The notes below the pieces were generated by a model. The model searched no databases and was not told the origin of the DNA. It worked only from the letters and a program-made list of their open reading frames with translations. Below are positions 16,717-35,176 of a DNA stretch of 56,012 bases, piece by piece. The translations under genes were made by a program, and so were the position numbers. The DNA is from Bradymonadia bacterium (GTDB lineage: Bacteria; Myxococcota_A; Bradymonadia; UBA7976; UBA1532): contig JBKAGE010000061.1 of NCBI GenBank assembly GCA_046290225.1, forward strand, positions 1-56,012, in the 5' to 3' direction. How positions within the stretch are numbered: the stretch's first letter is position 1; every line of letters starts with the position of its first letter.

Positions 16717-16908
16717 TGGGGCCTCCCGTGGTCATGTAGTGATGCTTGGGGTTATCTCAGCACAAGATGAAGCGCAAGGGGGCGAAAATGCGAGCGGAAA
16801 CGGGGTGGAGGGCTGAGTGCTCGGCTGTGCTGGCGATCTGTGTACTCAATGAAGCACACCACGAAGCCATCACTGAAAGGAGGGCACCTTCCTGACGAGG
16901 GCTGTGAC

Positions 16909-17419
16909 GGGCGTTGTGGCTGGTCCTTTGTAGGCAGTCATCGCTTCGCTCTGCCTGCGTAGGCAACTGCCGGCGGCCGGCCTTCGGCCCGCCTTGGAGT
17001 TGCGTACACGTCGACATACTCGCTGAGGCGAGCAGATCTCCGGGTAGGCAGGGTCGCTCAAGGCTTCGCCTTGTTTGCTCGCTCCCCTGCGTAAAGAGCT
17101 TCTTCTGTATCTTGTTGCTGAACCCGCCGGGATTCGACCTACCGCAAACGTGTAAGCCCCTGAGCCCCAACGCTGGGCGAAAGCCCCAACAGCATTGGGA
17201 GTGCTCTCAAAGCCACACCAGAACTGACTTTTTACGCAGGGGAGCGAGCAAACAATGCGTCAGCATTGAGCGACCCTGCCTACCCGGAGGGGTTCCGCGT
17301 TAGCGGATGCCCGAACGTGTACGCGACCGACGAGGCGCATCGAAGATGTGCCGAAGGCCGGGCGCCTACGCAGGCGGAGCGAAGCGACGACTGCCTACAA
17401 AGGACCAGCCACAACGCCC
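16909..17419. repeat. Large palindromic intergenic element A (MITE/REPIN-like)
   Basis: ~187-bp imperfect inverted arms (16909-17095 and 17231-17419) around a ~135-bp core; homologous to 31775-32340. Confidence 0.9.
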
Positions 17420-17477
17420 ACTCAATGACTACTCTTGGTGAATGTCCAGGCTCGTTTAAGGGCCAGCGTGTGTGGGC

Positions 17478-19190
17478 CTACTGCAGTCGCAATCGCCACA
17501 TCACCCAGTCATCACCTTCAGGCCCACAGGCCAACAGCGCGTCATCCCGGCAGTAAATCTGATGATCCACCGGCAACCCCCCTGCGGGTACCTGGCGTTC
17601 ACCGCTCTGGCCCACCTTCGAGCGCTGTAACAGCAACCCCTCAGACGTGGCGCTCACCAGCACACCCGTGTCGAGCAGCGCGAAGCTCACCGAGCGCTCG
17701 TCCACGTCTTCAGTGACGTGCAGGTCGAAATCCAGTGTGTGCCCTTTGAGCGCTGTACGGATCGTGATGCGATCCCAGCGACCGGACTGATGCTGGCCGA
17801 TCAACATGATCACTCCACCATGACGTGCGCCAGTGAGGGTGCGGTAGGCCTGCAAGTCGGGCAGTCGAAGCGTATGGCAGGCCCCCGAGGCCTGGCTCAC
17901 GTGTAGTCGAGGCAGGCCGTCGAGGTGATCGAGGGCGCAGCCGTGGAGCAATGTCGTCGCCAGGGGCGTCACGGGGGTGAGGCGACGCGGTGCAGCGATG
18001 AGCTGGGGGCCGATCTCCTTCAGCGTGAGCGTGTAGAGATCTGCGCCACTGCGGTAGAGCACCTGATCACCACCTGGGGCCAGATCATCAGCGTAGATGT
18101 TGAGCGTCAGCGGCTGTTCGGTAAGCAGATCGACCCCTCTCAGCGCTGAGCCATCGAGCCATACCAGAACCGGACGGCGCCCGCGAGGGCTCAGCACGAG
18201 GGCCCAGCGCACTCCAGGCAGAGGCATGACCGGGCGGTCACCGAGCCAGACCCGATCGTCGCTCACATAGACCGGGCCCCGAGGCGTGGGCAACCACGCG
18301 AGGATCGGCCCTGGCGCGCGGTGGACCTCCTGGCGGGTCATCGAGTCGTCATCCACAGCTGGTCGTACGGTGATGTGCGTCGTGGCCGTGGCGTTGAGCG
18401 TAGCCGGTGGTGGGCCGCGGTGGCCTTCTTGAAACACGCGCCAGTACCAGCTCTGCCACCCTTGAGGGATCACCTCGGGCCCCAAAGCTGCTCCGGGCAC
18501 TCGCACTGCGTCGTCAAGCACCGAGACGCCGGCCTGCATGCGGGCGTCGAGGCCTTTGACCGTGGGGTGTTTTCCCTGAAAAGGGTGTACCCCTCGGAAC
18601 ATCTGAAAGCTCACCACGGCGAAGGCGAACCAGTCCGTGCCTTCATTGAACACGCCCTGAGGGCCCTGGCGATCCCGTACACGCTCCGAGAGAGCCGTCG
18701 CCGGGTATCCGGGGGTCTGGTAGCTGTCGGTGTCGATGGCATAGAGGCGGCGTCCGCCGGGCTCGTCAGCCACCAAAAAGTTCATCTCGTTGAGATCGAC
18801 CACCAGGGTGGAGGCGGCGTGCACGCGACACACCATCTCCCGCAGTTCGAGCACCAGATCCGCGATGGTCTGCTCGGTGATCTGGTGTCGGCGGCGCCAC
18901 GCTTTGGAGAACAATGAGCACAGCGGGGTGGCGGTGTGCACGAAGCGTTGGGTGTACCCGATGACCTGCCCATTGCTGTCGAGCAGCCGCGTCTCAGGTA
19001 CGAGCACACCAGGATGATCGATGGCCCGCAGAGCGTTCATCTTGCCCACAGGGGGCACTTGCCCCGGATCATGAAACACCTTGTAGGCCACGTCGCCCCG
19101 GGCGAAGACCTTGCCCTGACCGCCCTCGGCGACGAAATCCCCGGTGCTCAGGTTGATGGGGGCGCTGTGGCCTTCAAGGTAGATCTGCAT
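17478..19190 (-). CDS. Ser/Thr protein kinase-like protein (TerY-P-type kinase) with beta-rich C-terminal region
   Basis: AEGGQGKVF, VAYK, VVDLNEMNFLV, IDTDSYQ and DWFAFAV..HPF motifs. Confidence 0.82.
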   Translation of the reverse strand: MQIYLEGHSAPINLSTGDFVAEGGQGKVFARGDVAYKVFHDPGQVPPVGKMNALRAIDHPGVLVPETRLLDSNGQVIGYTQRFVHTATPLCSLFSKAWRRRHQITEQTIADLVLELREMVCRVHAASTLVVDLNEMNFLVADEPGGRRLYAIDTDSYQTPGYPATALSERVRDRQGPQGVFNEGTDWFAFAVVSFQMFRGVHPFQGKHPTVKGLDARMQAGVSVLDDAVRVPGAALGPEVIPQGWQSWYWRVFQEGHRGPPPATLNATATTHITVRPAVDDDSMTRQEVHRAPGPILAWLPTPRGPVYVSDDRVWLGDRPVMPLPGVRWALVLSPRGRRPVLVWLDGSALRGVDLLTEQPLTLNIYADDLAPGGDQVLYRSGADLYTLTLKEIGPQLIAAPRRLTPVTPLATTLLHGCALDHLDGLPRLHVSQASGACHTLRLPDLQAYRTLTGARHGGVIMLIGQHQSGRWDRITIRTALKGHTLDFDLHVTEDVDERSVSFALLDTGVLVSATSEGLLLQRSKVGQSGERQVPAGGLPVDHQIYCRDDALLACGPEGDDWVMWRLRLQ

Positions 19191-19191
19191 A

Positions 19192-19923
19192 TCAGAAGCT
19201 CAGCAGTGCGCTCGCCGCACCAGAGCCCAGCGCCATCGACTGCGCCGAAATCGAACGCCCGATGAAGCCTGCCAGGGCCGCGAGTGTGTCTTCTGTGGCG
19301 TCGTTGAGCTCGAGATAGGCGTCGAAGCCCGCATCTTTCTTGAAGTCGCCCAGGGCCTGGCTGAGACCCTGGTGGTTGACGTTCACCCCTACGAGCACCG
19401 TGGTGAGCGACTCGAGGGCCTCCGCGCGGCGTGCTTGGGAGATCTGAGCTTTGATCTCCGCCGCCGTGGCGCTGGAGCTGTTGTCTTCGCCGTCAGTGAT
19501 GACGAAGACGATGGCGTTGCAGGCCACGTCGACGTCGGCGAGGCGCTCGCCATAACCGATGACCGAGGTGGTGGCGTTGAAGGCGGCGTCGTACAGAGCC
19601 GTGGAGCCGCCGATCTTGATCTCGCCGTCGTACTGCCCCGCTGGACAGTCGAGCACGGGCTTGAAACCGTGCAATTCTCGCAGCTGGCTGTTGAAGGTGA
19701 GCACCCTCAGCATGAGGTTGTCGGCCCTCGGGTGGCTGCGGCAGGCCTGGGCTGCCCGCTTGAGGCAGGCCTCGATCTCGTCTTTGAAGTCACCGACGCT
19801 GATGCTCACGTCGGCGGCGATGACCGCCAGGGTGTATTCCGTGGCCTCGAGCTCGTCCACCGGCAGGGCGGAGAAGCCATAGTGGCCTGAGAGAGGCTGA
19901 CTCTGATCGTCGAACAAAGGCAT
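19192..19923 (-). CDS. vWA domain protein (TerY-like)
   Basis: MIDAS DVSIS, GGSTALYDA and ITDGEDNSS motifs. Confidence 0.88.
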   Translation of the reverse strand: MPLFDDQSQPLSGHYGFSALPVDELEATEYTLAVIAADVSISVGDFKDEIEACLKRAAQACRSHPRADNLMLRVLTFNSQLRELHGFKPVLDCPAGQYDGEIKIGGSTALYDAAFNATTSVIGYGERLADVDVACNAIVFVITDGEDNSSSATAAEIKAQISQARRAEALESLTTVLVGVNVNHQGLSQALGDFKKDAGFDAYLELNDATEDTLAALAGFIGRSISAQSMALGSGAASALLSF

Positions 19924-19940
19924 GAGTCTTACTCCTTGAA

Positions 19941-20750
19941 TTACAGGTGGTTGAGCACGGTGTCAGTGGTGGCCGTCTTCATGCCCCGGGCGGTGAGATC
20001 GGCGATGAAGGCCGCCTGCAGATCTTCGAATCCGGGCACTGGCGAGGTGGCGTCGGTGAGCAACACGAGCTTCTCGACGTAGGCCGCCGCGGAGAACTGA
20101 TCGGCGATGTCCCGCACGGTGCTGGCGAGGCAGTGGCTGCCAGCCTCACCGGCGAGCAGAACCACGTCGGCCTGCTCGAGCGATTCGACAAAGCGCGTGT
20201 TGGTGTGGGTGGTGGCGTCTCGTGGATCAGGCACCTCGGCCTGCACTGCGCTGAAGTGCTCTGTCCAGGGGTTGCTGCCCTTGGTGACGTAGTCCACCCA
20301 GGCGAAGCGATCAGTCCACTCGCTCAGGGCATCGGCGAGATCGGGCATCAGGCCGTGACCCTCTGATCCGATCAGACAGTGCTGGGGCCAGACCGTGTGG
20401 GGGTAGCGGCCGCCCGCTTCGAGGGCCCGCAGGTACTCAAGGGTGCGGGCATAGGCCCCAGGGCGGGTGGTGGTCCAGACCCCGTCGGCGAGATCAGCGG
20501 CGGTGATCCGGGTAAAGGGCGCAGGGTGCTTGCCGTTGCTGTCGACGAACCAGGCCGGGTGGGCGATGTCCACCGGGTGGTGGGCGTCGAGGGTGACGTG
20601 CACGTCGCTGAGCGTGTTGCGCATGCGTTTGATGAGCAGGGCGAGCCGATCGATGTCCTTGTCGGCGCCGGGTACGCTCAAGGCCCCCTGGGGATGGCAG
20701 AAGTCGATCTGCGGGTCGATGATGACGAGGTGAACGTTCTTGCCGGGCAT
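19941..20750 (-). CDS. pncA: Nicotinamidase (isochorismatase/cysteine hydrolase family)
   Basis: IIDPQIDFC..GALSVPGA, TLDAH, WPQHC, TKG and GEAGSHC motifs (Asp-Lys-Cys triad); GAGGAGG RBS. Confidence 0.88.
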   Translation of the reverse strand: MPGKNVHLVIIDPQIDFCHPQGALSVPGADKDIDRLALLIKRMRNTLSDVHVTLDAHHPVDIAHPAWFVDSNGKHPAPFTRITAADLADGVWTTTRPGAYARTLEYLRALEAGGRYPHTVWPQHCLIGSEGHGLMPDLADALSEWTDRFAWVDYVTKGSNPWTEHFSAVQAEVPDPRDATTHTNTRFVESLEQADVVLLAGEAGSHCLASTVRDIADQFSAAAYVEKLVLLTDATSPVPGFEDLQAAFIADLTARGMKTATTDTVLNHL

Positions 20751-24835: not shown

Positions 24836-25535
24836 TTACTCATCTGAGCGCCACAACAGATCGATGAAGCCGCGCATATAACGCTTGGCGCTCATACGGC
24901 CTCCAGTGACGTGGTCCACCACCTGATCCGCCTGCAGACGAATCGTCCGGCGCTTGTCGCCCCGGGCGCCACCACCGATATCTGCCCGTCGCCGAGCGTT
25001 TTGCTCGGCAGCCCGTGCAGAGCGTGCACGCTCTTGCAGGTGCGCACGCATGATGGCTTTGGCCTGCTGCAGGTTCTGGTGCTGGCTGCGCTCGGACTCC
25101 ACTCGAACCATCAACCCCGTAGGGATATGGGTCAGCTGGATCGCGCTGTCGGTCTTGTTGCGGTGTTGACCCCCGGCGCCGCTGCCGCGGCAAGCCTTGA
25201 ACGTGAGATCACGATCATCGAGACGCATCTCGGAGGCCTGCACCATGGGCAGCACCGACACCGTGATGGTGCTGGTGTGCACACGACCGCGTTTTTCGTT
25301 GGGAGGCACCCTCTGGAACCGATGGCCGCCCGCTTCGTGGGCGAAGGCCTCGGCGGCCCCGGAGCCGCTCACCTGCAAGCAGACGAAGCCGGGGCGCTGG
25401 TCGAGGACTCGGAGGTCAAAGACGTTTGTGATCCGTGTACTTCACGTACAGAGCCATTTGTGCTTCGACGAGGCTCTTGCTGTCGGCGCCGCCCTCGGCG
25501 GCCCGGATCTCCACGATCAGCGTCTGTGATCGCAT
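24836..25535 (-). CDS. RF1-like peptide chain release factor homolog lacking domain 1, split by a +1 frameshift (about 232 aa)
   Basis: AAGGAG RBS and ATG 25535 give MRSQTLIVEIRAAEGGADS...YVKYTDHKRL-stop. The +1 frame continues DLRVLD...EAGGHRFQRVPPNEKRGRVHTS...GAGGQHRNKTDSA...ERSQHQN. Confidence 0.88.
25415..25421 (-). other. Candidate programmed +1 frameshift site CTT-TGA-C
   Basis: Identical to the prfB shift site and located at the frame junction. Confidence 0.72.
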
Positions 25536-25568
25536 GGTCTTTCTCCTTGGCGCACATCTGCGCCTGCA

Positions 25569-25593
25569 AGAAGCCCTGACAGTCAGGGCTTCT
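25569..25593. promoter_or_regulatory. Perfect 25-bp palindrome upstream of the RF-like gene
   Basis: AGAAGCCCTGAC-A-GTCAGGGCTTCT. Confidence 0.5.
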
Positions 25594-25683: not shown

Positions 25684-25866
25684 TCAGAGCCGATCGAGCC
25701 AGGCCCGCTGAGCATCGCTCACGTTCAGGAGAGGGCGAGTATTTCTGAGGGTTTCGAGAGCCTCATCGACGGATTGGGCTTGCCCGCGAGCCAGCAGAAT
25801 CGCTGCGGCGACAGTCCCGGTACGGCCGTGCCCTTGAGCGACCAGAAAGAAGAGCGCGTATCGCAT
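25684..25866 (-). pseudogene. Internally deleted dual-specificity/tyrosine phosphatase remnant
   Basis: MRYALFFLV joined directly to AQGHGRTG...: a CX5R P-loop missing its His-Cys, followed by phosphatase-like C-terminal helices; 60 aa. Confidence 0.7.
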
Positions 25867-25867
25867 C

Positions 25868-26902
25868 TCAGGGCACCAGCCGCCTGAAGCCGTGACCCAG
25901 CACCACCACCAGCTGCGCGAGGTTGCGGACGGGCACCAGGGGCCACCACCAGCGCACGCGTCGATCGTCGCCACGTGCCAGGGCCTCACCGGCTCTCTGG
26001 AGCGTCGCCAGAGACAGCGGGCCGTTCTTGATGGGTGTCAGCCACGCCTCAGGCCAGATCGACGGCCCGTGCTCGACGCCGAAGAGGGCCCCGGCGATGG
26101 CCCCGGTGGTGTCGGTGTCACCCCCGCAGCGCCAGAGTTGGTCCAGGCCTTCACAGGGATCTTCTCTGTGCCGCAGGACTGTGTAGATCACCATGGGGAC
26201 CGTGTGGTGCATGTACCCGGTAATGCCTTCCGACAAACCCAATAGATCTGCAAGGTTCGACACTGTGAGTTCGCCAGCCAAGGCGTGTTGCACCGAGTCC
26301 ATCGCCTCGCGCCATGTGGCGTCTCCGTTTGGCAGCGCGCGCAGGCGGGTGAGCAGATCGGCGACAGGCTCTGTCGAGCCGAGTCTCGACCAGGCCGCCA
26401 CCTCGGCGATGGCCAGGGCCCCTACGAGTGCTTGTGGATCGGTATGGGTCAGCCAGGTCGAGGCCTCCACGTGGGCGAGACGTGCCTCAGCGTCGTCGTG
26501 GAAATACGCGCCGATCATCGGGGCCCGCATGGCCGGCCCGTTCCCTGCAGACCAGACTCCGGCGCGGCGGCTCGGCCAGCCGAGGCACAGCTTGATACAG
26601 GCCCGGGCTGTGCCCAGACCCAAGCCCGGGGGCAGGGCGAGGAACCAGCCCCTCAAGGCCCAGGCGAGCCGGTCGCGGAATGCGTCGACGTCGCCCTGGC
26701 TGGTGATGAGGCTCTGGGCCACGAAGAACGCATGATCGGTGTCGTCGGAGCACATGCCCCAGGGGCCGAGCAGTCGGTGGCGCCAGGGTCCGGGCATACG
26801 TCGGGCGATCTGTCGGGGCTTCAGGCCCTCGGCGGGCAGGCCCACGCTGTCGCCGACGGCGGTGCCCATCAAACAGCCGACGAGGGCGTGCTCTGAGGTC
26901 AT
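25868..26902 (-). CDS. ADP-ribosylglycohydrolase family protein 2
   Basis: GTAVGDSVGLPAEG, SDDTDH, SAGNGPAMR and GGDTDT motifs. Confidence 0.92.
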   Translation of the reverse strand: MTSEHALVGCLMGTAVGDSVGLPAEGLKPRQIARRMPGPWRHRLLGPWGMCSDDTDHAFFVAQSLITSQGDVDAFRDRLAWALRGWFLALPPGLGLGTARACIKLCLGWPSRRAGVWSAGNGPAMRAPMIGAYFHDDAEARLAHVEASTWLTHTDPQALVGALAIAEVAAWSRLGSTEPVADLLTRLRALPNGDATWREAMDSVQHALAGELTVSNLADLLGLSEGITGYMHHTVPMVIYTVLRHREDPCEGLDQLWRCGGDTDTTGAIAGALFGVEHGPSIWPEAWLTPIKNGPLSLATLQRAGEALARGDDRRVRWWWPLVPVRNLAQLVVVLGHGFRRLVP

Positions 26903-31782: not shown

Positions 31783-32340
31783 AGAACTGACCAGGGGCCG
31801 AATCGGGCAATCACGGAGGTGGTGGCTGGGCCTTTGTAGGCAGTCATCGCTTCGCTTTGCCTGCGTAGGCAGCTTTGTCGGCCGGCCTTCGGCCCGCCTT
31901 GGAGCTGCGTACACGTTCGGGCATCCGCTTGCGCGGAACCCCTCCGGGTAGGCAGGGTCGCTCAATGCTGACGCATTGTTTGCTCGCTCCCCTGCGTAAA
32001 AAGTCAGTTCTGGTGTGACTTTGCACTGATTCCGGTGCTGCTGGGGCTTTCGCCGAGCATTCACACTCAGAGGCTTGCAGGTTCGCGGTAGGTCGAATCC
32101 CGGCGGGGTTCAGCAACGAGATACAGAAGAAGCTCTTTACGCAGGGGAGCGAGCGAGAAGGGCGAACCTGAGCAGGCTGGCTTCGCGCGCGGTGCCCAGC
32201 GTACGCGCCAGACGAGGCGGTCCGCAGGACTGCCGAAGGCCGGCGCCTACGCAGGCAGAGCGAAGCGATGACTGCCTACAAAGGCCCAGCCACCACCTCC
32301 GTGATTGCCCGATTCGGCTCTTGGCCTGTTCTCTAGAGCG
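31775..32340. repeat. Large palindromic intergenic element B (core inverted relative to element A)
   Basis: Inverted arms from CGCTCTAGAGAAC...GCCTTTGTAGGCAGTCATCGCTTCGCT to ...CCTACAAAGGC...GTTCTCTAGAGCG; core is the reverse-complement homolog of 17096-17230. Confidence 0.9.
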
Positions 32341-35176
32341 CCAGGAGTCGTCGGAGCACCCCATCCGGCTCCGCGAGCCCCAATGTCAGAATCTCCCGCA
32401 CTCGAGAGGGTGTATCCGCCGTGGCGTAGATCCGAAGCTGTGGCGCGTTCCCAGAGGGTCGAATGTGGGCGACGTCACCGCTCGAAAAGCGCACCCGGAC
32501 CCCATCGAGGAAGTTGATCCCCACCACCGGCCCGAAGTCGGGGCCGAACTGTGTCTCGAGCGTGGCGCACACGCCCTCGAGCTCTGCGGCGAGCCCGTCA
32601 CCCATGCTGTGCGATTCACCCGTAGCATCCTGCCAGCGGGGCGTGTCACCCAGCTCTACGGACTTCACCGCCGAGTCGCTCGGGCGGATGCGGGCCAGCA
32701 GCGCCATGCTCTGATCGCGTGGCACCTCGTCGAGCAGGCCCGCGCCGCTGAAGCGTTGGGGCAGGCGGTCGAAGAGCGCGCTCAGAGGCACACCCTCCCG
32801 CTTCGCCATCCACAGGGCTGTGACGATGGGCAGCACTGCGTCGCGGGTGGGCAAAGGCGCCAGAGCTCCACCCGGTAGAGGCAGGGGTGATCCTGTGAGG
32901 AACCCGCCGTTCGCCTCCCAGCCCACCACTCGATCACCCGACAGGCGATCCATCGCCGCGATCACCCAGGGCGAGCCGATGCGGGTGCGCTCCACCTGCA
33001 CCCCCCGAGGAGCAAAGTGGGCGTCGATGAGATCGTTCGCGCTCACCGGTACTGCCAACGCGTCCGCGTCGAGGGCTTCTGCCACCACCGCGCCGAGGAT
33101 GTCACCGCCGAAGAAGCGGACCTCGCCGTCGTGTACCCCGAGCACCATGGGTCGATCGCTGTCACCGTCCGTGGACACCAGAGCGTCGATGGGGCCCACC
33201 TCGGCCTCCACCCCTTTCACCATGTTTTGAAGGTGGACCAGCAGATCGTCGCCGATCGCCTCGGTGTCGATGGCCACGAACTCAGCCGAGCGGCCCACGG
33301 GATGCACCGTGGCGCCGAGGCCCCGCAAGATCTCCACGATGAGCGTGCGACCTACGGCGGAGTGCTCGTAGAACGCCACCGTGATCCCATCGAGGGCGCC
33401 CGAGGGGAAGGCGTCGAGTGCTCGGGCGCGATACATCTCGCGGGCGGCAGATTGCTCAGGTGGCAGCGAGGTGAGCCGACCCTCGCGGCCCATGCCCGCG
33501 TCATCGAAGTGCGAGTCGTTTGCTGCGCGGCCGTACTCCAGAGCCCGCACCCGAGCCACCGCGGCGAGGATGGGCTGCTCGTCCGTTTTGAGCACCTCAC
33601 CCTTCGAAGTGTTGAACTTGATGCCGTTGCGATCGAAGGGGATGTGGCTGCCGGTGATCATGATGCTCGGCCAGCGGCGCTGAATGCCGAAGAAAGTCAG
33701 CGCCGGTGTGGGCAGGCGTCCGCAATACACCGGAGACAAGCCTGCGTCCCGTACAGCCTGAGCCACAGCCCGTGAAATGCGGGGCGAGCTCGGGCGCAGA
33801 TCGCACCCGAGGGCCACCGGCGTGCCCGGCACCGCGTCGCCCGTGTCCACGAGATAGGCAAGAAAGCCTCGGGTGTTGATGTAGGCCTCGAGATCCGTGA
33901 TGTCGGTCACCAGGCCACGCAGGCCACTTGTGCCGAAGGCCAGAGGCTTCGGAGTACGGCCTCGGAAGGTCGATGCTTCACCACCTGGCATCCGCACCCG
34001 GAAGATCTGAAGCCCTTCTCCCTGAAGTCGATACTCTGTGCCCGGGGCGATGAAAGCGCTCACCCCGCTCTTCAACTGCAGAGATGCCCCGTCGGGCCCT
34101 TGGAGCAGACCCTCACCTGCGCCGATGGCCAGCACCAGCTCGGGCCCGTCAGCGTGTCGGATCACCGTGGCGCCCGTGAGCCGATGACTGCGCAGCTCGA
34201 ATGCCGATGTCGGGGTGGGGTAGATCTGCTCGGCCGCCCCGTCTGTGCCCAGCGTCACCGCCTCCATGGGGATCGGTGCCCGGGCGTCGCTGCGCACCAC
34301 CTTCAGCAGCTCTGCAGGATCGACATGCTTTTGGGTCAGGCCCGCCCGAAGCACATTGTCAGAACAGGCCATCAGCTCGATGCCCGCGCCCTTCAGGTAG
34401 GCGTGGGGCACCCCTGCGGGCAGGAACATGCCCTGACCCGGGTTCAGTCTCACATGGTCCAGCAACAGCACGAAGAGCAGGCCGCGGTCGGGTTGATCCC
34501 CACCTGTCTCCTGGTGGATTTGCAGCGCCAAGCGGGCGGGCGTCGAAGCCTTTGGTGCTGTGGCGAGCTCTTCGAGCCAGCGGCTCAGCGCCGGCACCAC
34601 CACATCGTCGGGGCATGCGAGATAGGCTTCGACGAGGGCCTGGATGCCCGCTGTGCTCGCCTCGAAGGGCGGCAAGATCGACGACACCGCCGTCGCCTGC
34701 TCGAGCAAAGTGGCGATCTCGCTCGGATCTCGAAATCCGCACAGGGCCTCGAAGGGGGTCAGCGCCACCATCAGCTCGGGCTTGTGCGATGCGTCTCGAT
34801 AGCGGCGATGAGCAGCATCACGGGGCACCCCGGCGGCCTCTTCTGCTTCGAAGCCCGCCAGAGCCTGCGCAGAGTTGGGGTGCACTTGGATCGACAGTGG
34901 CTGAGCGGCGGCGAGGATCTTGAGCAGATAGGGCAGCTCGGCGTGATCGCCGAGCAGGGCAGCGCCATGGGTGGTCAGGAGCGCGTCGAGGGGCTGTCGC
35001 TCACCATCGACGATGGCCTCGGAGGGCGCCGCAGCATGGGCGCCGAACCAGGCCTCTGCGCAGGGCTGATCAGAGGCAGGCATGCCCAGGGCCTCGGGGA
35101 TGAACGTCGTGTCACCCCACGCATAGTGTCGGAGGTTGGGCACCAGTTGGATCACGGCGGGTACGGTCGAGGTCAT
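32333..35176 (-). CDS. Fusion of mannose-6-phosphate isomerase class I and phosphomannomutase
   Basis: N-half YAWG, EAWFGAH, LSIQVHP, HKPEL, PHAY; C-half FGTSGLRG, ITGSHIP, DGDSDRP, GWEANGG, IRPSGNAP. Confidence 0.92.
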   Translation of the reverse strand: MTSTVPAVIQLVPNLRHYAWGDTTFIPEALGMPASDQPCAEAWFGAHAAAPSEAIVDGERQPLDALLTTHGAALLGDHAELPYLLKILAAAQPLSIQVHPNSAQALAGFEAEEAAGVPRDAAHRRYRDASHKPELMVALTPFEALCGFRDPSEIATLLEQATAVSSILPPFEASTAGIQALVEAYLACPDDVVVPALSRWLEELATAPKASTPARLALQIHQETGGDQPDRGLLFVLLLDHVRLNPGQGMFLPAGVPHAYLKGAGIELMACSDNVLRAGLTQKHVDPAELLKVVRSDARAPIPMEAVTLGTDGAAEQIYPTPTSAFELRSHRLTGATVIRHADGPELVLAIGAGEGLLQGPDGASLQLKSGVSAFIAPGTEYRLQGEGLQIFRVRMPGGEASTFRGRTPKPLAFGTSGLRGLVTDITDLEAYINTRGFLAYLVDTGDAVPGTPVALGCDLRPSSPRISRAVAQAVRDAGLSPVYCGRLPTPALTFFGIQRRWPSIMITGSHIPFDRNGIKFNTSKGEVLKTDEQPILAAVARVRALEYGRAANDSHFDDAGMGREGRLTSLPPEQSAAREMYRARALDAFPSGALDGITVAFYEHSAVGRTLIVEILRGLGATVHPVGRSAEFVAIDTEAIGDDLLVHLQNMVKGVEAEVGPIDALVSTDGDSDRPMVLGVHDGEVRFFGGDILGAVVAEALDADALAVPVSANDLIDAHFAPRGVQVERTRIGSPWVIAAMDRLSGDRVVGWEANGGFLTGSPLPLPGGALAPLPTRDAVLPIVTALWMAKREGVPLSALFDRLPQRFSGAGLLDEVPRDQSMALLARIRPSDSAVKSVELGDTPRWQDATGESHSMGDGLAAELEGVCATLETQFGPDFGPVVGINFLDGVRVRFSSGDVAHIRPSGNAPQLRIYATADTPSRVREILTLGLAEPDGVLRRLLAL

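Follow-up and report, generated by a model that had tools for sequence, protein, structure and literature searches.

A putative third, RF1-like release factor behind a prfB-type +1 frameshift site in a Bradymonadia genome and its phage-associated relatives

Programmed frameshifting in bacterial release-factor genes is described for prfB. In their accessible text, reviews and a survey of 12,000 genomes present autoregulation by frameshifting as an RF2 peculiarity, in which the gating stop is UGA, seldom UAA and never UAG, and as absent from RF1 genes (PMC5009743, PMC12421855); the available portion of the survey reports no programmed frameshift for prfA (PMC12421855), and, in a sentence on in-frame stops, a UAG equivalent in the genes of release factor 1 is said to be unknown (PMC5009743). 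The release factors listed in the accessible part of a further paper are RF1, RF2, ArfB and PrfH only (PMC6514570). RF1 or RF-1-domain genes have been recorded on large phages and in tRNA arrays, the available passages giving their presence only, with no truncation, recoding or separate family (PMC7162821, PMC5966550). Release-factor genes also occur in recoded phages, the accessible text mentioning no recoding of the gene itself (bioRxiv 2021.08.26.457843), and in the available text of two other papers release factors are mentioned only in the references (PMC7824862, PMC9503650). No description of the family reported here, or of a gated RF1-like factor, was found in the literature searched (subscription papers and supplements lay outside its scope). 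The gate device is thus known; its place in an apparently undescribed RF1-like release-factor family appears to be new.

The stretch of DNA analysed here (the window, 56,012 nucleotides) comes from a Bradymonadia genome of 8.58 Mb, 64% GC and 99% completeness, which also has a separate prfA (on C53) and prfB (on C36), the latter with its own frameshift cassette, CGGAGGTATCTTTGAC, equal to the family consensus. Positions 24836–25535 of the window, on the minus strand, hold a further release-factor gene (Table 1). From the letters alone, an initial annotation had described a strong ribosome-binding site and ATG, a 39-codon frame ending in CTT TGA C, and a +1 frame complete to a GGQ factor. The open reading frames and the 232-aa product obtained by joining them through a +1 slip agree with that description, as does the anti-Shine–Dalgarno (anti-SD) duplex ahead of the start codon, at −8.5 kcal/mol against a family median of −6.2. 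The shift-site codon, Leu39, aligns with Trp144 of E. coli RF1. CTT, an in-frame stop, the C after it as in prfB-type sites, and a product going on in +1 are all present in this copy; an internal SD before CTT is absent (anti-SD duplex +0.6 kcal/mol). The inverted repeat upstream may be the end of the preceding transcript or a limit on expression.

Table 1. Features of the release-factor locus, in window positions
Feature	Position	Strand	Remarks
Shine–Dalgarno AAGGAG	25543..25548	-	7 nt ahead of start codon; from sequence
ATG start	25535	-	read from sequence
ORF1, 39 codons + TGA	25416..25535	-	domain 2 first strand and helix alpha5, AAEGG loop (RF1 GTGG equivalent)
+1 shift site CTT TGA C	25415..25421	-	CTT 25421-25419, TGA 25418-25416, C next
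ORF2, +1 frame from 25417, 193 codons + TAA (24838-24836)	24836..25417	-	rest of domain 2, domains 3 and 4
Position of the family's internal SD stimulator	25425..25430	-	CACAAA here vs CGGAGG in 68/132 shifted relatives
PPN tripeptide at RF1 PxT position	25298..25306	-	residues 77-79; alignment
GGQ catalytic motif	25166..25174	-	residues 121-123; alignment
Strong inverted repeat	25569..25593	.	34 nt upstream of start

In profile searches the joined product matches Pfam PCRF positions 100–194, the C-terminal half of that profile, and RF-1, and from residue 3 onward it can be aligned to solved RF1, ungapped across the frame junction. Domain 1 is missing, the alignment beginning at about RF1 residue 106, and the colinearity of the two halves with RF1, at first judged by eye, is upheld. 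An AlphaFold model built from a 51-row alignment (mean pLDDT 93.4) places the frame junction in the loop after helix alpha5, and the predicted structure resembles ribosome-bound RF1 (TM 0.90), the best match by fold. The prfA profile is likewise the best-scoring one (194 bits), but it stays below its cut-off of 423, and the product falls under every curated release-factor cut-off (prfB, 142 bits vs 370; PrfH, TIGR03072, 92 vs 167; ArfB, 35 vs 100). With PrfH it shares GGQ and the missing domain 1. Neither the PrfH SXY motif nor the RF2 SPF motif was found in the alignment, and the product departs from the ArfB type, a stand-alone GGQ with a basic tail and no decoding domain, in having domains 2 and 4; the early statement that it matches the motifs of neither PrfH nor ArfB is borne out by the scores and the lack of SXY. 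The net charge is +13 in this copy and has a median of +9 in the family, whereas RF1 cores are at about −2. In gene-caller annotations only the 3′ part appears (178 aa), and it is because of the split frame that these genes are annotated as fragments of 170–220 aa. On sequence and model, the gene likely encodes a third, domain-1-less, RF1-like factor, whose full length would likely be made only upon a +1 slip at the gate stop.

Relatives were fetched with the 3′ half of the gene and with an alignment of 51 full-length proteins, taking the best 80 at most per scan, which is no census. Among 307 sequences scored, 186 passed 28 bits (N part) and 200 bits (C part), giving 159 distinct loci; weak hits, truncated loci, true RF1 genes and distant subgroups are left out of this set, and a few near-duplicates remain in it. 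At this codon 132 loci break in +1, 15 are intact and 12 have in-frame stops, with a median pairwise identity of 52% and an invariant GGQ (159/159). The last codon before the gate is CTT in 131 of the 132 shifted loci, compared to 13% of other leucine codons in the same genes, which places CTT at the gate beyond chance and answers the call for a conserved CTT–stop break among homologs. The gate stop is TGA in 96 shifted loci, TAG in 31 and TAA in 5, and the base after it is C in 112. GGAGG stands at −11 to −7, three bases ahead of CTT, in 70 of the 132; 109 pair with the anti-SD at −5 kcal/mol or more strongly, and in 8 the pairing falls short of −2, namely in this copy and seven other loci that also have no internal SD. 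The SD duplex has a median of −10.0 in shifted loci and is weaker at the same place in the 27 unshifted ones (p 8e-10, kinship uncorrected).

dN/dS was 0.118 for ORF1 and 0.133 for ORF2 across 19 disjoint pairs, which were picked at 72–99.5% protein identity, biasing the ratio downward. Judged by these ratios (about 0.12–0.13), both halves are under purifying selection, and the downstream half is not near 1. Conservation, selection on both halves and the independent contigs described below make it almost certain that programmed frameshifting at this site is under selection in the family, and, as first proposed, the position does not correspond to that of the prfB site. Gating does not appear to be obligatory, intact members being common: among called proteins intact forms are the commoner, 72 of the 120 matches listed covering at least 94% of the query, a count in which the full-length protein query favours intact forms. 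Others among the matches listed start out of frame just ahead of the shift site. Fused longer forms were not found at E 1e-40 among 3339 candidates, which is weak evidence. Shifted genes end in TAA in 72 of 129 cases versus 98 of 438 neighbours, as expected for a gene translated when termination is poor; intact genes likewise favour terminal TAA (8/15).

The gate stop changes 25 times on the family tree, fewer than with shuffled labels (mean 32.7, minimum 28), and the shifted, intact and in-frame states change 12 times on this tree of modest support and unsure root. Gate stops swap between close relatives without a change in recognition residues, and no covariation of the gate stop with alignment columns was found beyond the forced residue 40. 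Among the in-frame-stop loci, seven have TGA or TAG directly after the Leu position and five have TGA further on; the sister phage loci L119 and L120 carry their in-frame stop, TAG or TGA, at one and the same codon and are flanked by the same tRNA-Glu genes. In distant loci CTT TGA C also occurs near codon 22 (three loci: L098, L101 and L102) and near codon 49 (four loci: L013, L016, L019 and L100). The latter form a shorter subgroup, mostly without an SD, that includes Aeromicrobium sp. 179-A 4D2 NHS and Ornithinimicrobium murale DSM 22056, a named type strain that has the distant version. Insertions of about 8 to 29 codons precede the site in L007, L278 and L320, and CTT TGA C still ends the first frame there. 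Stop-codon reassignment was considered as the cause of TAG gates and in-frame stops and rejected, table 11 ORF coverage being the same across gate types in a crude test; in L120, L236 and L248 coverage is 0.94–0.99, and TGA readthrough adds 0.06 or less, the case being less clear-cut for L119, L183 and L190.

The family occurs mostly on large phages and in tRNA arrays. Its 159 loci come from viral collections (77), metagenome contigs (71) and genomes (11), the named ones mostly Myxococcota; 51 of the 117 loci of at least 5 kb hold tRNA or tmRNA genes, up to 34, and the huge-phage record LR745208 carries a member with the full cassette. The factor is a third one beside prfA and prfB in all six genomes checked, and the five named carriers all have three. 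Among 401 genomes of the phylum, some of them incomplete, G000 and G240 were the only two with three matches at E 1e-40; the G240 gene sits within a 38-tRNA array, and G220 likewise carries a shifted copy. PHROGs offered only an unnamed family of RF1 length and short RF-1 domains. A conserved protein partner was sought and none emerged, the largest neighbour cluster (16 loci) being HNH-like by eye.

Horizontal spread of tRNA arrays, and induction of one of them under translational stress, are described in a paper whose accessible text does not mention release factors (PMC8421152). G000 has 96 tRNA genes, with tight clusters at C20:227-1226, C37:77269-79067, C42:92366-93501 and C79:72099-73132 (9, 10, 7 and 7 genes), which may derive from the break-up of one long tRNA array; the release factor of this locus may have arrived with such an array. 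In addition, ARAGORN places a CUA-anticodon tRNA, which may read amber codons, at C14:27995-28067 of G000. A predicted CUA-anticodon tRNA also lies 262 bases upstream of the TGA-gated gene in L220, and an odd CCTA-loop tRNA is found nearby in L183.

No tRNA genes were found in the window, no prophage was seen around the gene (nine window proteins scanned), and PADLOC returned no families among seven window proteins. The gene is part of a minus-strand run, with an ADP-ribosylglycohydrolase gene upstream and DUF4132 and isochorismatase-like genes downstream; rtcB is not immediately upstream, the window neighbours being ADP-ribosylglycohydrolase and DUF4132. It was not found in 17 same-family genomes scanned. 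A short minus-strand ORF (25684-25871) overlaps the stop of the ADP-ribosylglycohydrolase gene; by eye it looks like a tyrosine-phosphatase fold reduced to its C-terminal half, in which HGQGHGRTG replaces the catalytic loop, and it gave no Pfam or PHROG hit. Downstream of DUF4132, three adjacent minus-strand genes (17478-20750), kinase-like, vWA-like (by eye, no Pfam hit) and isochorismatase-like, are a possible stress or conflict module. Elsewhere in the window, an intergenic element with translated strings recurring in several ORF frames is repeated at about 16800-17450 and 31800-32300, and one 947-aa minus-strand ORF (32333-35176) is a fusion of phosphomannose isomerase and phosphomannomutase.

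On balance, we consider it probable that the gene has a prfB-type shifty stop as the gate to a back-up terminator, which in turn acts back on that gate. With tRNA-Leu on CUU, a ribosome would wait at the gate stop and slip +1: by analogy with prfB, efficient termination would release the 39-aa peptide, and slow termination would let the CUU tRNA re-pair on UUU. The factor, probably of relaxed specificity, would then recognise the gate stop in its own gene and thereby complete a negative feedback loop. Its origin would lie in a phage or mobile tRNA-array kit propping up translation under stress or infection, and we infer a back-up or rescue role for the product. In prfB, loss of the internal SD lowers shifting, and the same loss in this copy would lower the shift rate and give a tighter switch. 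Without domain 1 the factor would also act independently of RF3; domain 1 is described, in the accessible text, as dispensable for release and required for RF3 (PMC1586002). The initial annotation had supposed a factor made only when UGA termination is weak, which fits the TGA of this gate and of 96 of the 132 shifted loci but is too narrow in naming UGA alone, given 31 TAG and 5 TAA gates and three contigs with TAA.

Codon recognition is where the closest rival departs. Numbered by E. coli RF1 in an alignment of the 159 loci, the residues retained in the family are G120, G121, Q185 (158/159), P188, T198 (146/159), S199 and GGQ, with Glu for T119 in 157 and Asp for E123 in 154. Roles in RF1 decoding are assigned to G120, Q185, P188, T190 and T198 in the available text of PMC5776981, and the RF1-type residues present here predict, on sequence, reading of UAA and UAG, not of the UGA found at 96 of 132 gates. 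The PPN that had been noted in place of the RF1 PxT motif is real in this copy, in which PxT itself has no match, but it is a minority variant of PPT, an RF1-type PxT motif, and the family mostly fits PxT by alignment (at the third residue, the T190 column, T in 98 and N in 47 of 159 loci). T190 is implicated in rejecting G at the second stop position (PMC5776981, accessible text), so PPN could admit UGA. Asn in this column accompanies 33 of 86 TGA gates versus 5 of 32 others (Fisher p 0.026), an association not significant in independent pairs (median p 0.5), and 53 TGA-gated genes carry Thr there. Changes at the acidic RF2 residues E170, E172 and D329 are described as relaxing specificity (PMC7530605, available part); these positions are not acidic in the family, and at RF2 E167 an E or D is retained by 129 of 159 loci, in an alignment that is gappy around 167–177. 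The lost acidic positions and the basic charge are hints only of relaxed specificity.

It is accordingly conceivable, if rather unlikely in our judgement, that the frameshift is real and the product has plain RF1 specificity (UAA/UAG), so that a TGA gate senses host RF2 or general termination capacity without self-feedback and only TAG and TAA gates are autoregulatory. The kept equivalents of G120, Q185, P188, T190 and T198 point this way, as do the best matches, which are to RF1 both by profile (194 vs 142 bits for RF2) and by fold, and TGA C, a weak stop context according to the accessible text of PMC12421855, would be enough to account for the TGA excess at gates. A UAA/UAG reader made in answer to UGA trouble would, however, be poor logic; moreover, gate stops swap between close relatives with these residues unchanged, and Asn at T190 is commoner with TGA gates, if not in independent pairs.

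A codon-independent rescue factor like PrfH or ArfB, acting on stalled or damaged ribosomes with the gate as a proxy for translational stress, seems improbable. The product is without domain 1, as in PrfH, and basic, its relatives sit with tRNA arrays, tmRNA and HNH genes, and a quick tree puts PrfH next to the family on a branch that is long and unreliable; yet it scores far under the PrfH and ArfB cut-offs, has no SXY motif and keeps the RF1 decoding head, and RtcB was not seen among 3849 neighbouring ORFs of relatives in a crude search by clustering or by motif.

Strain variation bears on whether this particular copy is intact. Seven public marine runs contain parts of the stretch as contigs (conspecific and near-identical, among them X2, X3, X4, X6 and X7), at a depth of only 2–3, at which any one difference alone could be an error; no RNA run was among those listed. 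The independent contigs X3, X4 and X7 (depth 2.5–3) bridge the shift site without an indel, which settles the concern that the break reflects an assembly indel. Base 25417 differs in X2, X3 and X7, from two studies, turning the gate into CTT TAA C, and X4, as well as X6 near its end, reads TGA there. Among the other coding differences listed, a subset made up of sites away from contig ends, 10 of 11 are synonymous (neutral share 0.24, p 7e-6).

That this chromosomal copy, without its SD, is a decaying or scarcely expressed member of an otherwise functional family strikes us as very improbable. The early remark that no SD-like run precedes CTT holds, but the decay suggested along with it is not supported, because 10 of the 11 listed strain differences are synonymous. 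Decay would be in keeping with the lost SD, with the lack of a surrounding tRNA array, with an upstream ORF resembling half a phosphatase, and with a further scan of 24 same-family genomes, in which the gene's 5′ part had no match at the DNA level. It sits poorly with a gate stop that is kept while its identity changes, with a GC3 of 0.74–0.76 near that of the neighbours (0.78–0.82), and with the seven other shifted loci that also have no SD. An assembly indel, transcriptional slippage or two separately started proteins can be dismissed with near certainty: gene callers do annotate the 3′ part alone, but the same break recurs in 132 loci and in independent contigs, only three T stand in a row, and 105 of the 132 shifted loci have no ATG in the new frame within 30 codons; the split gene is not an assembly error.

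Beyond the self-gated back-up terminator that we favour, a bolder proposal may be entertained tentatively, namely that the family is a third class of codon-reading release factor, moved by large phages and tRNA arrays, that reads all three stops without RF3, and that its hazardous excess led gates (three +1 sites and in-frame stops) to evolve repeatedly, with UGA, UAG or UAA as the gate codon. If this were true, the family would represent a naturally omnipotent release factor of bacterial type, by which phages could counter the shut-off of host translation. Why bacteria lack a single factor for all three stops is an old question that becomes testable with natural proteins, and the family is likely to offer a handle on how large phages keep translation going. 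The same device at a new position and with all three stops is an independent replicate of how such a switch arises, retunes and is lost, and in the present locus the device is found on a chromosome, without the SD and with a gate stop that differs between near-identical strains.

Among described systems, the release-factor genes of huge phages and tRNA arrays can be likened to the family by their listed presence alone in the accessible text (PMC7162821, PMC5966550). The class I release factor of Mimivirus and Megavirus is also virus-borne and made via stop-codon recoding, read as autoregulation; according to the available text, however, it is of eRF1 type and needs readthrough and a frameshift, whereas the family is bacterial-type (PMC3521657). 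PrfH (RFH), which goes with RtcB2, is likewise a sporadic class I factor with GGQ and no domain 1, but the family query falls below its cut-off, has no SXY and shows no rtcB partner. RF1 (prfA) is closest in sequence and fold and shares the decoding residues and GGQ; the family differs in lacking domain 1, in its length of about 226 aa, shorter hairpin, basic charge and Glu at T119, and in a quick tree it is sister to RF1 rather than nested in it. With prfB the family shares the SD-N3-CUU-UGA-C cassette and its spacing. The prfB site lies at codon 25-26 in domain 1 (E. coli), in contrast to the family site in domain 2 at RF1 Trp144, and the family product is not RF2. Family gates also use TAG or TAA, whereas the accessible text of the survey gives TAG in 0 of 8,164 prfB motifs (PMC12421855).
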